Shown: piece by piece, positions 1 to 42,187 of the stretch | Numbering within the stretch: the stretch's first letter is position 1 | Layout: every line of letters begins with the position of its first letter | Source of the DNA: Bacillota bacterium | GTDB taxonomy: Bacteria; Bacillota; Ch66; Ch109 | Length of the DNA stretch: 64,000 nucleotides | Reading direction: 5' to 3' | Assembly: GCA_050952625.1 (NCBI GenBank) | Contig: JBMNLH010000007.1 | Coordinates: 1-64,000 of the forward strand | The notes under the pieces: generated by a model | Database searches by the model: none | What the model saw: the letters and a program-made list of their open reading frames with translations, nothing else | What the model was told of the DNA's origin: nothing | Translations under genes and position numbers: made by a program

Positions 1-1285
1 TAATTTGAGTAAACTGCCTTAAATCAAGGGCTGCTGAAAGTCTGTAATCTTGCTCTCCTCTTTCACGATATTGACTTTTAATTGCACCGGGCATGAAAGG
101 CTTGGTATGTTGGTTTATAGTATTAAAATACCTCTCTATGATACCCTTCATGTCACCTCTGTAAGGGCTAGTATTTAATATTTTTATTCCAAATGCTGAT
201 ATTAAAGATTCTATGTTTTCCCCTTCCAATTCTCCTCTATCTGCAATAATTGCTTCAGGCAGGGTGCTGCAGTAATTCCACTCATCATTGCCAATCTCTA
301 TACCGTACTTCCTGCAAAAGGATACTTTGTCTGACGCAGCATTAATTAATGCGATACTGGCCCCAATCCAACTTGGACCTTCCAAAGATATATTAATTCC
401 TACGACACAACGTGAAAATACATCCATAACAGTATATATAACCGGCCTTCCTATAATCCAATTTCGATTATATTGGGATACTAAATAAACATCTCCTACT
501 GTTGCATCTATTTGAAATATTGCTCCCGGTCCAAATGCTTCTTCAGTAGAAGACCCTGTTAGCCCCCTATGTTTTAGTTCATATTGCTTTGCACTTTGTC
601 TAGTAGATACTTCTTTTTTAATGTTTCTCTCCTTATTAAACCAATACCTGAATTGTCTTAATGTAGGAATGGCATCCTTTACTATTCCATTTTCACTAAA
701 GTATTCTTTAATCATAAGTTCATAGGTTAATGTTAAAGTCTTTCTTGAAGAATTGTAATAAAACCTATTAAGTGCTGTATTAAAAATCTTTATCGTTTCG
801 GGGGTAATGACAAAAGTATTATTTTTCTCTTTGTTCCCTTGTTTCCCGCCACAATTATGATAATCAGGAAGTAAGGAGTTTTTGTGCATACCTCTCTGCC
901 AAAACCGTTTTAAATATCTCATTACAGTTGCTTCGTGGACATTATCAACATATTCTCTGACAAGTTTAGCCCTCTTTTCAGCAATGTAAATGTCAGGTTC
1001 AATAGTAACAATGTCTTTAATGGCATTGTAAGCCTTATCTCTTATGGCCTTATGTTTAGGCAGGATATCCTCTTCATCTTTAATAATCATATATGGTTCA
1101 TTATCTAAAACATATATAGTGCCATCATTTAACCCACTCTGAATAAAGGTTTCTGAAACTGTAACAGGCATTGAGTTACCATAAATATCAATTAAATAGA
1201 TGATATCTTTATAGTAATACAGAACTCGGTAATATATTTTACCCTGACTTGTTTCGTATAAGATTACACTATTGATTGGAAGCAT
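1..1285 (-). CDS. tnsB: Tn7-like DDE transposase TnsB, runs off the window at its 3' end
   Basis: Not in the ORF track (no stop in window). Hand translation from ATG 1285 (overlapping the tnsA stop) gives MLPINSVILY... and the motifs GPGAIFQIDATVGDVYLVS, IGRPVIYTVMDVFSRCVVG, PEAIIADRGE, PYRGDMKGIIERYF; both ends are in the same frame. Confidence 0.9.
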   Translation of the reverse strand, partial: MLPINSVILYETSQGKIYYRVLYYYKDIIYLIDIYGNSMPVTVSETFIQSGLNDGTIYVLDNEPYMIIKDEEDILPKHKAIRDKAYNAIKDIVTIEPDIYIAEKRAKLVREYVDNVHEATVMRYLKRFWQRGMHKNSLLPDYHNCGGKQGNKEKNNTFVITPETIKIFNTALNRFYYNSSRKTLTLTYELMIKEYFSENGIVKDAIPTLRQFRYWFNKERNIKKEVSTRQSAKQYELKHRGLTGSSTEEAFGPGAIFQIDATVGDVYLVSQYNRNWIIGRPVIYTVMDVFSRCVVGINISLEGPSWIGASIALINAASDKVSFCRKYGIEIGNDEWNYCSTLPEAIIADRGELEGENIESLISAFGIKILNTSPYRGDMKGIIERYFNTINQHTKPFMPGAIKSQYRERGEQDYRLSAALDLRQFTQI

Positions 1286-1688
1286 ACCTAGCACCCCAAT
1301 CAATAATAATTTTGGGACGACTTTTTGCTATATCTATTGATTCATTCATATCAATGTAAATATGTTTAGATGCTAGAAGGTATTTAAAAATGTATAACCC
1401 TGTTCCATCTGACACATCATTTTCTTTATCAAAATCAGAAGTTATTTTTCTAATTGAATATTTACTATCCCTAAATTTATCAATTAGAATGTTACAATAA
1501 TTCTCTAATGAATTTTCTGTTAAGCCTCTTTCTTCATAGGTATACAAACTTGAGTGTATCCACTCTATGTTTTTTGCCATTTTAGTAGGTATTTCTTTTT
1601 GGGTAATTATGCCAAAATCAATTTGTTTTGCTGCCCAATATCTTCTTTCTATTTCTAGTCTTTCCAGCACGGACTTTTTCCCTAACTC
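1269..1688 (-). pseudogene. tnsA: tnsA 3' fragment (after IS insertion)
   Basis: ELGKKSVLERLEIERRYWAAKQIDFGIITQKEIP...NIEWIH is the TnsA C-terminal signature; joins the 5' fragment in frame when the IS and one AACTC copy are removed. Confidence 0.9.
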
Positions 1689-1908
1689 GGCTTGAACCCC
1701 TATTATTGGAGAATATACACTTAAAGCTTAAGCTTACATGAAATATAACGTTTTACCTTGAGCAACCGCCCTTGACATGAGGGCCCCTGGTGTCCGTGTT
1801 TCTTAGGGCCCGCCAGGGCCCGCTGCAGCTAATGCTTTTGCGGCCCTTTGCCAGGGATAGGCTAACACGGACACCCTCCCCATGTAAAGGGTCTTCGATA
1901 AACGGTTG

Positions 1909-2871
1909 CTAGGCGACCATTTTCTTCTCTGTAATCTGGTTGCTCATAACAGCTTCATAATATTTAGCAGGTGCCATGTACCCTATGCTGCCATGCCGGC
2001 GACGATTGTTGTAATAATCCATGTATTCGCTGATGACTCTGTATGCATCTGTAAAGCTGGTAAACTCATTTCTGCTATAGCATTCATCTTCTAATATAGA
2101 ATGAAAGGACTCAATATAGGCGTTCATATTAGGACTTTTAACTGGTATTCTTTCGTGAGTTAATTTCCATTTCCAGCATGTCTCTTCAAATATTTTAGCG
2201 GTAAACTGCGGGCCATTATCAGTCCTTATTATTGGAAGTTCCATGCCAGGCTTTAAATTGCGTTTATTAAGCGAATTTATAAGTACTGCGCAGGCATCCT
2301 TAGCTGTAGCACTTAATCCAAGGTGATAGTCAATTACTGAACGGTCAAACACGTCTATAAGGGATAATTGGAAGAAGAACCTGCTCATACCCTCAATGTA
2401 ACCATACTTCAGGTCCATTTGCCAGTGTTGGTTAGGGGCAGTTACTTCATCTCGCTTTGCCAGTTTTCTCGGCCGGTCTAGATATATTTTTCTCTGAGGA
2501 CGCAATACGTTAAGTTCTTTACAGAGCCGGTATGTTTTCTTATGGTTTATGATAAGCTGGTAATCCTCTTTCAGGGTTGCGTTGATTTTTTTATAGCCAT
2601 AAGGGAAACCATCCCCGGTAACTATCTCTTTAATATATTCCTTAATTAATTCGTCAGAGATTTGCTCACCTTCTAGATTTAATGAGTACTCTGATATCTT
2701 GCGCCCCGGTTTCTCTTTTGGTGATTTCTGGTTAATAGCACTTATAGTTTCTTTGATTTTATGATAGTAGGTGGATGAAGCCAAGCCGACAGAGCTAAGG
2801 ACCAGAGAAGCTTTATAGCCCTTATCTATCCACCTTTTAGCTATGGTAACCCTGTCGGCTACCGAGGGTTT
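1909..2871 (-). CDS. IS3-family transposase OrfB (integrase core), probably reached by -1 frameshift from OrfA
   Basis: YGYKKI, INHKKTYRLC, PNQHWQMDLKY, IDVFDRSV, RTDNGPQF, NAYIESFHSILEDE, YYNNRRRHGSIGY. Frame is open upstream of the track start (2784) into the orfA end and is -1 relative to orfA. Confidence 0.9.
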   Translation of the reverse strand, partial: KPSVADRVTIAKRWIDKGYKASLVLSSVGLASSTYYHKIKETISAINQKSPKEKPGRKISEYSLNLEGEQISDELIKEYIKEIVTGDGFPYGYKKINATLKEDYQLIINHKKTYRLCKELNVLRPQRKIYLDRPRKLAKRDEVTAPNQHWQMDLKYGYIEGMSRFFFQLSLIDVFDRSVIDYHLGLSATAKDACAVLINSLNKRNLKPGMELPIIRTDNGPQFTAKIFEETCWKWKLTHERIPVKSPNMNAYIESFHSILEDECYSRNEFTSFTDAYRVISEYMDYYNNRRRHGSIGYMAPAKYYEAVMSNQITEKKMVA

Positions 2872-3170
2872 TGGATATCCCTTAACTCTCTTAAAATAGC
2901 CAACTCTAATTCTTTATCAGCCAGAAGGCGTTTTAGCCTGTCATTCTCAGTACTAACTTCTTTAAGCTGTTTTTCCAGAGCTTTTTGGCGGTCATCTTTA
3001 GCTTTAGGCAGTCTCTTTATGGAGCCGTTTTTTCGATATTTACTTAACCAAGTATGAATTGTATTGGCCGACATTTCATGTCTGCGAGCTACCAAGGCGA
3101 CGTTACCTGTTTCCTGGCACTCTTTTATAATTAATTCCTTGAATTCATCGCTGTATTGCTTGCTTTTCAT
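2859..3170 (-). CDS. IS3-family transposase OrfA (HTH plus leucine zipper)
   Basis: YSDEFKELII...VALVARRHEMSANTIHTW, then ENDRLKRLLADKELELAILRE; SD GGGGGT upstream. Confidence 0.9.
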   Translation of the reverse strand: MKSKQYSDEFKELIIKECQETGNVALVARRHEMSANTIHTWLSKYRKNGSIKRLPKAKDDRQKALEKQLKEVSTENDRLKRLLADKELELAILRELRDIQNPR

Positions 3171-3242
3171 GAAAATCTACCCCCTATTATTATGTTAACG
3201 TATTACACGTGCTTTCTCCAAATTTATTAGGGGGCTAGATAG

Positions 3243-3603
3243 AACTCACTCGATGATTTTACTGTCCTTGCAATATATTTGTGATTTCGTAAAGTTAGTA
3301 GAAATGTAGTTGTTAGTATATATGGAGGCTCTTTATTAATAAAAAACTCTTGCTTAAGGTCTTTATTGTCTTTTACTACCTCTGCTAAATCTAAAAGTGG
3401 ATAATGTTCTCTAATATCTACTATTTCATCATCCCATTCAAACATATAAAAACATCTGGTTTGAATATCTGAAAAGAAATGATGTATTCTGTTTGTCTTC
3501 CAGCCTTTTATGCGTGACACCCTACCATTTGACGGGAAGTCTTGTATGGATAACCAGGGCTTATAGGAGGTTAATTCTCCTGCACCACGATTTTCAGACA
3601 AGA
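3243..3603 (-). pseudogene. tnsA: tnsA 5' fragment, N-terminally truncated
   Basis: RGAGELTSYKPWLSIQDFPSNGRVSRIKGWKTNRIHHFFSD...VDIREHYPLL...TTTFLLT is the TnsA nuclease domain. Cut by the transposon end at 3604; in-frame stop at 3611-3613 and no RBS before TTG 3601. Confidence 0.85.
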
Positions 3604-3817
3604 TGTTCAGTTACAAATAAGTTTGCTCACGTAGTGACAAAGTTTGCTCGTGATGAAATGTAGTTGTTGCAAGGCTTCTCGCTGTTTCTTCCCTTGTAGT
3701 GACAAAGTTTGCTCTCGGGTTGCCTTTACTGAGAAAATATAAAAAAAGATATAAAAAATGAGAAAATGACAAGCGAGTTTGCTCGTGAGCAGTGAAGAAT
3801 GACAAAGTTTGCTCGTG
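3604..3817 (+). repeat. Tn7-like transposon end (left-end-like) with spaced TnsB-binding sites
   Basis: Starts TGT-N6-ACA (TGTTCAGTTACAAATAAGTTTGCTC); five direct copies of the AGTTTGCTC core ending at ~3628, 3649, 3714, 3784 and 3814. Confidence 0.8.
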
Positions 3818-3961
3818 GAAAAATAAGGACAGTGATACGCAGGGTATAACCTACGGGAGGAAATATCGAAACCACCTACACATACGAATTATACAGGCTT
3901 ACGAGGGATTACAACTGCGTCCGGATTTAATAATTTATACATTCTTATATGCTTTTTTACA

Positions 3962-4002
3962 CAACAAAAAACCGCCAAAGGGAATTCTCCCCCCTGACGG
4001 TT
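3962..4002 (-). terminator. Intrinsic terminator downstream of rpsI, inside the mini element
   Basis: Minus strand ACCGTCAGGGGG-loop-CCCTTTGGCGGT followed by TTTTTGTTGT. Confidence 0.7.
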
Positions 4003-4004
4003 GG

Positions 4005-4058
4005 CGCTTGCCATAAGCAAACTTTGTAAGTTTGAACAAACTCGAGTGTAAATAAACA
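4005..4058 (-). repeat. Tn7-like transposon end (right-end-like) abutting rpsI
   Basis: Minus strand TGTTTATTTACACTCGAGTTTGTTC-AAACTT-ACAAAGTTTGCTT: TGT-N6-ACA start and two adjacent sites matching the 3604-3817 motif. Confidence 0.75.
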
Positions 4059-4062
4059 CCAA

Positions 4063-4456
4063 TTAACGCTTGGAGAATTGAGGAGCCTTACGCGCCTTTT
4101 TCAGACCGTATTTACGCCGCTCCTTCATTCGCGGGTCACGAACCAGGAAACCGGCTTTTTTCAAGACTGGCCGATATTCTCCATCTGCTTGGGTCAGGGG
4201 CCCGCGCAATTCCCAACCGAACGGCTCCCGCTTGGCCGGTAGTTCCGCCCCCGTGAACCCGGGCTAATACATCAAATTTCCCCTGCGCATTGGTAATTTT
4301 TAAGGGCGATTGAACTAACATTTCTAAAGTTTTCTTGCCAAAGTATTCGTCTACCTGCCGCTCATTTATTAATATCTTGCCGGTGCCGGGTACCAGACGC
4401 ACCCGAGCAACTGAAGTTTTACGCCGACCAGTACCATAAAACTGTACCTGTGCCAT
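4063..4456 (-). CDS. rpsI: 30S ribosomal protein S9, with apparent 1-nt insertion at 4197-4200
   Basis: [19 protein letters not shown]...GIARA; removing one G from GGGG restores [44 protein letters not shown]-stop (130 aa). Confidence 0.95.
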
Positions 4457-4483
4457 GTCTGCTTTTCCTCCCTTCCTACCCAA

Positions 4484-40984: not shown

Positions 40985-42187
40985 TTATTCGATAATGCCG
41001 GTCACGACACCAGCACCTACGGTCCGACCACCTTCTCGAATCGCAAACCGCAGTCCTTCTTCAATCGCAATCGGGGTGATCAGTTCAATGGTCATCCGAA
41101 TGTTGTCCCCGGGCATAACCATCTCTACGCCTTCCGGCAGGGTCGCGACACCAGTCACGTCTGTGGTCCGGAAATAGAATTGGGGTCGATAACCATTAAA
41201 AAATGGGGTGTGCCGTCCACCTTCGTCTTTCGTTAGGACATAGACTTCGGCCTGATAGTGGGTGTGCGGTTTAATGGAACCAGGCTTCGCTAAAACTTGA
41301 CCCCGTTCGATTTCTTTTCGATCAACCCCCCTGAGCAGGGTGCCGATGTTGTCACCCGCTTGGGCAAAGTCGAGAATCTTGCGGAACATCTCCACCCCAG
41401 TGCAGACAGTCTTGCGCACATCTTCCCGCAAACCAACGATTTCTATTTCCTCGCCAACCTTGATCGTGCCGCGCTCGACCCGACCAGTGGCCACGGTGCC
41501 TCGGCCAGTAATGGTAAAGACGTCTTCGACCGGCATCAGGAATGGCTTATCCACGGCCCGTTCCGGAATCGGCACGGAAGCGTCGACAGCGTCCATCAAA
41601 TCCCAGACCACCTTGCAGTTCGGGCATTCCCGGCCGCCACAGGCACATTCCATCGCCTTTAAGGCGGAACCCCGAATTACCGGAATGTCGTCTCCCGGAA
41701 ATTCATACATATTCAACAGGTCACGGACTTCCATTTCAACCAGTTCGAGTAATTCTTCGTCGTCAACCATATCCACTTTATTCAGGAAGACGACAATATA
41801 AGGAACGCCAACCTGACGTGCCAGCAAAATGTGCTCTCGGGTCTGCGGCATGGGACCGTCAGCCGCGGAGACCACCAGAATGGCTCCGTCCATCTGGGCC
41901 GCTCCAGTAATCATGTTTTTAACGTAGTCTGCGTGACCCGGGCAATCCACATGGGCATAATGTCGGTTGCCGGTTTCGTATTCCACGTGAGAGGTAGAGA
42001 TCGTAATCCCTCTTTCTCTTTCTTCCGGGGCTTTATCAATCTGATCATAAGCTGTGGCTACCGCGCCGCCGGCTTTGGCAAGACAAATGGTGATGGCGGC
42101 GGTCAAGGTGGTTTTGCCATGGTCCACGTGTCCAATGGTGCCAATATTCACGTGGGGTTTGGTTCTTTCAAATTTTTTCTTGGCCAT
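40985..42187 (-). CDS. tuf: Elongation factor Tu (tRNA-cluster copy)
   Basis: 400 aa, near-identical to 24539-25741. Confidence 0.99.

Follow-up and report, generated by a model that had tools for sequence, protein, structure and literature searches.

Does a transposon of the Tn7 type use the 3' end of rpsI, the gene of ribosomal protein S9, as its attachment site? The question is raised by a 64-kb stretch of DNA from a Bacillota bacterium, the first 64 kb of contig C7 (JBMNLH010000007.1) of a 2.9-Mb assembly in nine contigs, which is called the window in the following. Here a transposon terminus lies only a few bases behind the rpsI stop codon. We conclude that it very probably belongs to a Tn7-like cut-and-paste transposon that comprises tnsA, tnsB and tnsC, a tnsD of short length and a defence cargo of about 40 kb, and for which the rpsI 3' end is a dedicated attachment site.

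A transposon terminus directly behind rpsI

The genes truA, rplM and rpsI follow each other in this order on the minus strand of the window. The features at their downstream border are:

4063–4483, minus strand: rpsI (ribosomal protein S9), the proposed attachment gene, with its stop codon at 4065–4063 and S9 residues 1–86 and 87–130 in two frames
4059–4063, CCAAT on the plus and ATTGG on the minus strand: target-site duplication of 5 bp, overlapping the last base of the rpsI stop codon; second copy at 41512–41516 of contig C1
3604–4058, minus strand: right-end unit of 455 bp with the TGT terminus and two forward sites (4058–4010), a hairpin with T run (4002–3960), five reverse sites and an inward terminus
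3970–4002, minus strand (rpsI sense): hairpin resembling an intrinsic terminator, with a 15-pair stem and a T run to 3960

On the minus strand rpsI ends with AAG CGT TAA, followed by TTGG (4062–4059). The element terminus TGTTTATTTACACTCGAG... begins at 4058, 4 nt past the stop codon. From this position downward the sequence TGTTTATTTACACTCGAGTTTGTTCAAAC TTACAAAGTTTGCTTATGG forms a TGT-N6-ACA terminus and two forward copies of a TnsB-like site (4058–4030 and 4029–4010). The core of this site, the 12-mer ACAAAGTTTGCT, is found five times in the window with at most one mismatch (0.32 expected), a number that none of 100 shuffled windows reached, and four of the five copies fall within 3637–4027. 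Both tnsA and tnsB are located on the minus strand and are directed away from rpsI. An earlier, sequence-only reading of this DNA had described a TGT-N6-ACA end with two TnsB-like sites stopping at 4058, 4 bp past the rpsI stop, and tnsA and tnsB reading away from the gene. The end was confirmed when the sequence was read again, and the gene assignments are borne out by matches to the TnsA family PF08721 and to TnsB of Tn7.

An extra base at 4197, within a C run, puts rpsI in two frames and gives the appearance of a +1 frameshift. This base is absent, at full depth, from the contigs of three of four public sequencing runs (X1, X2, X4). We attribute the frameshift to an error of the assembly, or else to a rare variant; it does not mark a pseudogene. 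A CwlD-like Amidase_3 gene beside the island (C1:41680–42466; L011:1680–2466) is likewise split into two overlapping open reading frames (ORFs) of 113 and 157 residues, probably by another indel error. Hence, the assembly contains indel errors, and rpsI is taken as intact.

Extent of the island and the empty site

The rest of the element is located on contig C1, which starts inside tnsC. There follows a gene for a TnsD-type protein of 425 residues, with matches to TniQ (PF06527, E 6e-21) and TnsD (PF15978, E 1e-58); its TniQ domain also matches the structure of Tn7 TnsD (PDB 8glu, E 5e-22). The selector genes had been expected outside the window, and this gene together with tnsC is what was found there. 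At the distal end a unit of a second type (C1:40592–41052) is followed by GATAT, a second copy of the window unit (C1:41058–41511, 95% identical), ATTGG and host DNA up to the CwlD-like gene. ATTGG borders the TGT terminus at 4058 as well as the ...GAACA terminus at C1:41511. Thus, an island of about 47 kb is flanked by a 5-bp direct repeat, with CCAAT at the distal end as the earlier reading had proposed to look for. In a genome of the same genus whose rpsI is 95% identical (G001) the site is empty: the rpsI stop runs straight into the sequence found right of C1:41511, and the segment 4005–4058 is missing, so that the comparison with an empty locus, also proposed earlier, speaks for insertion. 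Among 26 loci of relatives that were examined, none showed an element end after rpsI.

With TnsA, TnsB, TnsC, a TniQ-family selector, TGT...ACA termini carrying arrays of sites and a 5-bp duplication, the element has the features by which a Tn7-like transposon is recognized.

The limits of the island also bear on whether a site-specific recombinase placed it at rpsI, with the Tn7 genes as mere passengers. Integrative and conjugative elements (ICEs) of streptococci likewise have their safe harbour at the end of the S9 gene, as two reports state (PMC13693407, PMC10044541), and the cargo holds an ORF of the phage integrase family (C1:30377–30943). The streptococcal ICEs, however, depend on tyrosine or serine integrases and att recombination, whereas our island has TnsABCD and is limited by Tn7-type termini and a 5-bp duplication, not by att repeats. 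Moreover, the integrase ORF is only 188 residues long and internal, about 10 kb from the nearest island end, and members of the family without that cargo occupy the same site. Placement by a recombinase is thus very unlikely.

The cargo occupies C1:1.7–40.5 kb and also includes an actin-like protein. A BREX-like set (PglX-like methylase, BrxC-like protein, PglZ, BrxD, BrxHI) lies at C1:11.5–26.8 kb and a SMODS-domain protein at C1:32.6–33.7 kb. Several large cargo ORFs (891, 264 and 151 residues) had no family match.

Recurrence of the element at rpsI

The earlier reading proposed to count how often homologues lie at a set distance from rpsI. We approached this from the selector protein and, separately, from the end unit.

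An alignment of the short TnsD group, which is described below, served as query against a genome collection and returned 38 loci, eight with short and 30 with long TnsD. Five of the eight short-TnsD loci have enough upstream flank, and in all five rplM-rpsI lies directly upstream of tnsA in the same orientation. The hosts are Firmicutes bacterium FC7, Tissierella pigra, and Dethiobacteria, Clostridia and Lachnoclostridium metagenome-assembled genomes (MAGs). A scan of metagenomes gave a further 39 loci, 15 of them with short TnsD. Ten of these 15 start inside the element or are rearranged; L100, for instance, is rearranged inside tnsB and uninformative for the site. Among the five that are informative by their flank, four have rpsI upstream.

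The fifth, L093, has no rpsI within 1673 nt upstream and was considered as a counter-example. It was rejected as such, since its 200 nt upstream are identical to a locus in genome G173 that is located 9.4 kb downstream of an rpsI-adjacent unit, which makes L093 a stacked copy. Both sequences (L093:1–1657 and about 113.2–122.2 kb of contig C1 of G173) show a stacked array past rpsI in which two units enclose the gene of a tyrosine recombinase and an ORF of GIY-YIG-like type. L093 itself has a deletion of tnsB and a fusion of tnsA with the last part of tnsC.

With L093 set aside, rplM-rpsI is therefore upstream in all informative loci found through TnsD (9/9). The distances from stop codon to TGT in the window and these nine loci are 4, 6, 6, 4, 5, 5, 9, 4, 5 and 4 nt. 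The host rplM-rpsI DNA is at most 80% identical among the loci, except for one pair with 92% and matches of about 100 nt to a fragment (L101), whereas the Tns proteins are 74–99% identical to those of the window. Host genes so diverged beside Tns proteins so similar indicate transfers of the element among distant hosts, with the same landing place in every case. In T. pigra ATAAT is present on both flanks, the distal end being on another contig, and represents a second target duplication.

For the second approach we took 400 genomes as an even sample of the phylum and compared them at the DNA level with the 455-bp unit. A homologous right end is present in 16 (loci L134, L135, L141, L142, L145 and others), with the match mostly extending over the first 100–280 nt of the unit, and in 14 of the 16 the TGT terminus is located 3–8 nt past the rpsI stop. 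Only one of the 16 genomes (G173) has tnsA and tnsB of this family, and a short TnsD was found in none of them. In most, no left-type terminus lies within 1.6 kb. Given the near absence of tns genes and of left termini over this distance, most of these cases look like remnants or non-autonomous derivatives, although MAG incompleteness could hide genes. In a collection of plasmids TnsD homologues did not exceed 38% identity, and the 455-bp unit had no match; hence, no transfer vehicle was identified.

Both approaches place homologues close to rpsI, 3–9 nt past the stop, in nine of nine loci and 14 of 16 genomes, respectively. By these comparative counts a chance insertion at rpsI was rejected. 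The hallmark of TnsD-type targeting, i.e. the same gene in the same orientation at a near-constant distance with the right end proximal, is seen in the window, the nine loci and the 14 genomes, along with the empty site in G001.

A short TnsD as the presumed selector

Homologues of the selector fall into two groups. The close group, 66–96% identical, consists without exception of proteins of 420–425 residues; the remaining homologues are at most 43% identical and mostly about 590–680 residues long, apart from three shorter ones (249, 368 and 450 residues). The short proteins form one clade (100 in the Shimodaira–Hasegawa-like approximate likelihood ratio test, SH-aLRT) on a long stem among the long TnsDs. 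They end at position 227 of the 355 positions of the Pfam TnsD model, just past the helix-turn-helix. All members have only the end unit and tnsABCD in common, while the genes after tnsD vary. The sequences past the rpsI stop, including the duplicated 5-mers, vary by host as well, which leaves the S9 coding tail as the sole shared feature. Occupied (n=23) and unoccupied (n=29) rpsI tails are separated at two positions only, which match arginine codon usage; this comparison gave no signal of specificity.

From these observations and by analogy with Tn7, we propose the following course. The TniQ/TnsD protein of 420–425 residues would bind the conserved last codons of rpsI and recruit TnsC, which would bridge TnsD and TnsAB. 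Insertion by TnsAB would follow a few bases past the stop codon, in a single orientation that has the end near tnsA facing rpsI, and would generate a 5-bp duplication. The gene would be left intact, and its native terminator, displaced by the insertion, would be replaced by the terminator-like hairpin that comes with the inserted end. We infer from the analogy that the DNA is read by TnsD, and at which bases.

Two other ways of finding rpsI have to be considered. The earlier reading had named an RNA-guided selector beside a TniQ/TnsD-type one. Guide RNAs of CRISPR-associated systems do serve chromosomal homing in some Tn7-like families, as described in PMC11406308, and our host genome has CRISPR arrays outside the island. 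However, C1:1–41600 contains no CRISPR-like repeat array, and a PADLOC analysis of ten large cargo ORFs yielded BREX-type matches and no Cas effector as best hit. The cargo varies among members while the rpsI location is constant, and a TnsD-type protein is found in every member with the region assembled. The RNA-guided alternative has therefore been dropped, and we consider it extremely improbable. Since no cas genes were found among these cargo ORFs and no CRISPR-like arrays in the island sequence on C1, and since only tnsABCD is conserved, targeting of the rpsI 3' end by TnsD explains the data best.

The arrays outside the island are at C1:125–142 kb and at the end of contig C2 and the start of contig C3. 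As the latter two share the same repeat, they are probably one array that spans the contig break.

The second alternative concerns the short TnsD itself. The spot might be chosen by a host factor, by a second DNA binder of the element with the TniQ-like protein as adaptor, or by a feature of the rplM-rpsI transcript end, rather than by direct reading through TnsD. The protein is short, and its long relatives have about 200 more residues. Faure et al. (PMC10293859) suggest that the C-terminal part reads the attachment site in glmS-targeting TnsDs, and they assign proteins of similar length to a TniQ/TnsD class that is uncertain. Since the missing part is thus linked to reading of the glmS site, a host protein or an unseen partner is conceivable here, and Tn7 TnsD itself uses the host proteins L29 and ACP, according to PMC11406308. 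Against such a binder, no gene besides tnsABCD is conserved across members, and the short TnsD retains its Cys-rich motifs and a C-terminal helix-turn-helix. The post-stop sequences, which differ among hosts and leave the coding tail alone in common, also speak against this alternative. We regard it as unlikely, albeit less so than the RNA-guided or the recombinase-driven one.

Several observations weigh against direct TnsD-guided insertion at rpsI as described here. The spacing between stop and TGT ranges from 3 to 9 nt and is not one fixed value, and in two of the 16 genomes found through the end unit the matched end is 57 nt and about 84–136 nt from rpsI. The flanks of the G044 element differ at one of five bases (CATAT vs CATAC), and those of G045 (TCGGT vs GGTGC) form no duplication. 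The short clade lacks the C-terminal part of about 200 residues that its relatives possess. Finally, tnsA is broken in our genome, so that this copy cannot show activity, and the join between C7 and C1, with about 1.69 kb missing in between, is drawn from gene order and flanks, because this segment is absent from the assembly.

The 455-bp end unit and a possible composite architecture

The segment between rpsI and tnsA is itself delimited by two termini. Next to the two forward sites and the hairpin it contains five TnsB-like sites in reverse orientation (3821–3613), and its inward, left-end-like terminus ...TGTAACTGAACA ends at 3604. This terminus, reading ...GTGAGCAAACTTATTTGTAACTGAACA, is the inverted image of the outer one at 4058. 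Consequently, 4058–3604 is a unit with one right-type and one left-type end. A separate miniature inverted-repeat transposable element (MITE) between rpsI and a truncated transposon was considered and rejected: intact relatives show the same unit, then 230 bp and the tnsA start, without any other right end, which makes the unit the element's own right end.

The hairpin in the unit (4002–3970) has a predicted energy of −26 kcal/mol (z −4.2). It is conserved in 20 sequences, where four of ten pairs show compensatory changes. It would presumably terminate rplM-rpsI transcripts, the native terminator being displaced by the insertion.

In T. pigra the complete layout is unit, 230 bp, tnsABCD, cargo and unit, with the units in direct repeat and ATAAT outside both. 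Unit-type distal ends are also present in our genome and in G041, G044 and G045. The Dethiobacteria locus has two tandem units before tnsA with TATAT in between; in our genome GATAT is found between two units inside the ATTGG-flanked island, which fits a stack that arose in a previous host and was later moved as a whole. The 230-bp deletion in tnsA of our genome begins exactly at the internal left-type terminus, as expected if the transposase cuts there.

In four public runs from digesters or bioreactors (X1, X2, X4, X10) the depth of the unit, taken from assembled contigs only and summed over organisms, ranges from hundreds to about 21,000, as compared with about 2–30 for rpsI. Many contigs of these runs join 4058 to 3603 with 3–4 letters in between and thus represent unit-unit junctions. 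Some rpsI-bearing contigs continue past 4058 into sequence unlike the unit. The depth and the junctions suggest that the 455-bp unit moves on its own.

These data lead us to a tentative picture, for which the chances seem to us somewhat short of even: a composite Tn7-like transposon with tnsABCD and cargo between two direct, gene-less 455-bp units that have working right- and left-type termini, and with a naturally truncated TnsD as selector, whose DNA-binding module is smaller than that of glmS-type TnsDs. The transposase could then mobilize a single unit, a stack of several units or the complete element, which would account for the tandem units at rpsI, the fossil GATAT, the deletion of 230 bp at the internal terminus and the very high depth of the unit. 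Like a MITE the unit is gene-less, with a right- and a left-type terminus, and it occurs alone, in tandem near full elements; like the ends of a composite transposon it also occurs as direct repeats bracketing tnsABCD and cargo. In contrast to both, it belongs to a Tn7-like system and shares its site specificity; its independent movement is presumed. Titles and abstract openings of the literature searched mention no Tn7-like element bracketed by such units.

Decay of the copy in the window

The transposition genes in the window, all on the minus strand, are listed from rpsI inward:

3243–3601, minus strand: 5' piece of tnsA, shortened by a 230-bp deletion that abuts 3604 and comprises 17 codons at the gene start along with about 180 bp upstream, promoter region included
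1689–3242, minus strand (left boundary uncertain by a few bases): IS3-family insertion sequence (IS) within tnsA, with orfA (2859–3170) and orfB (1909–2784), i.e. HTH_Tnp_1 and rve ORFs
1269–1688, minus strand: 3' piece of tnsA with the TnsA C-terminal domain (PF08721, E 2e-21, match on 1269–1670)
1–1303, minus strand: first 434 codons of tnsB, cut by the end of contig C7 at position 1

The TnsB fragment of 434 residues matches Tn7 TnsB (PDB 7pik) with E 2e-74, residues 8–434 aligning with 3–442. An intact relative (L042) encodes TnsA of 280 residues (PF08722 and PF08721), TnsB of 693 (Mu-transpos_C), TnsC of 460 (AAA_22/TniB) and TnsD of 420. The tnsB 3' end and the first approximately 310 codons of tnsC, which span the missing 1.69 kb in L042, are absent from our whole assembly; the tnsC fragment at C1:3–455 is 95% identical to the end of the 460-residue ORF of L042 (AAA_22, E 5e-20, TniB). 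With tnsA broken twice, by the IS and by the deletion, and with only parts of tnsB and tnsC assembled, this copy has decayed and is probably immobile.

The IS is present in three copies that are 98–100% identical (about 1689–3242 in the window, C8:14194–15756 and C4:237754–239327).

Comparison with known elements

Our element resembles Tn7 and its TnsD pathway, which leads to attTn7 past glmS, in the gene order (tnsA-tnsB-tnsC-tnsD, starting at the right end), in TGT...ACA termini that carry several TnsB sites and in the 5-bp duplication. In both cases insertion is orientation-specific and just past the stop of a conserved essential gene that is kept intact. Tn7 inserts about 25 bp past the glmS stop, as compared with 3–9 nt past rpsI here. 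The target gene itself is thus a different one. Unlike in Tn7, the TnsD protein ends before the last third of its Pfam model, a tnsE-like gene for a second pathway is not conserved, and the ends are 455-bp units in direct repeat.

The nearest relatives are Tn7-like elements of Bacillota such as Acetivibrio thermocellus and Clostridium kluyveri. They have the same gene order, with TnsD at most 43% and TnsB at most 53% identical, and differ in a TnsD of 600–680 residues that is longer at the C-terminus. None of the 30 long-TnsD loci has rpsI within 10 kb or a match to S9 or L13 in its flanks. For the closest of them (G343, G101 and G069; 41–43% identical) the attachment genes were not identifiable from 4–5 kb of flank. 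Among the long-TnsD loci four are located beside glmS, one beside smpB and one beside nrdJ, the gene of B12-dependent ribonucleotide reductase (L055, L057).

Sites reported for the Tn7 family, in the accessible parts of the literature (including PMC10293859 and PMC11406308), are glmS, tRNA genes, comM, yhiN, parE, guaC, yciA, ffs, rsmJ, nrdB, nrdD, a methylase gene and CRISPR repeats. The earlier claim that rpsI is absent from the known Tn7-family sites agrees with the literature searched, so far as its texts were accessible: they name rpsI for integrase-driven ICEs, and no report of it as a Tn7-family site was found. These texts do not extend to supplements, and the 6,549 delineated elements of PMC8649781, for example, may well include uncommented cases. 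As far as these searches reach, the Tn7-like family described here is new in its attachment gene, in the clade of truncated selectors and in its unit-bracketed ends.

Meaning for the Tn7 family and its hosts

The value of the Tn7 family lies in a dedicated protein that steers the element to one safe chromosomal site, and each new site or selector widens the view of how TniQ/TnsD proteins are re-aimed. In the present case the site lies at the end of a ribosomal protein gene that is universal and highly conserved, and the presumed selector is of unusually small size. The element lives in anaerobic Bacillota of digesters and guts, for which tools for site-specific integration are few. Between such distantly related hosts the element carries defence systems (BREX-like, SMODS). 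With traces of its ends beside rpsI in about 4% of the phylum-wide sample, this locus is a hot spot to be reckoned with in genome annotation. If the unit-bracketed architecture is active, it would provide a route by which a Tn7-like element may spawn site-specific miniature derivatives.

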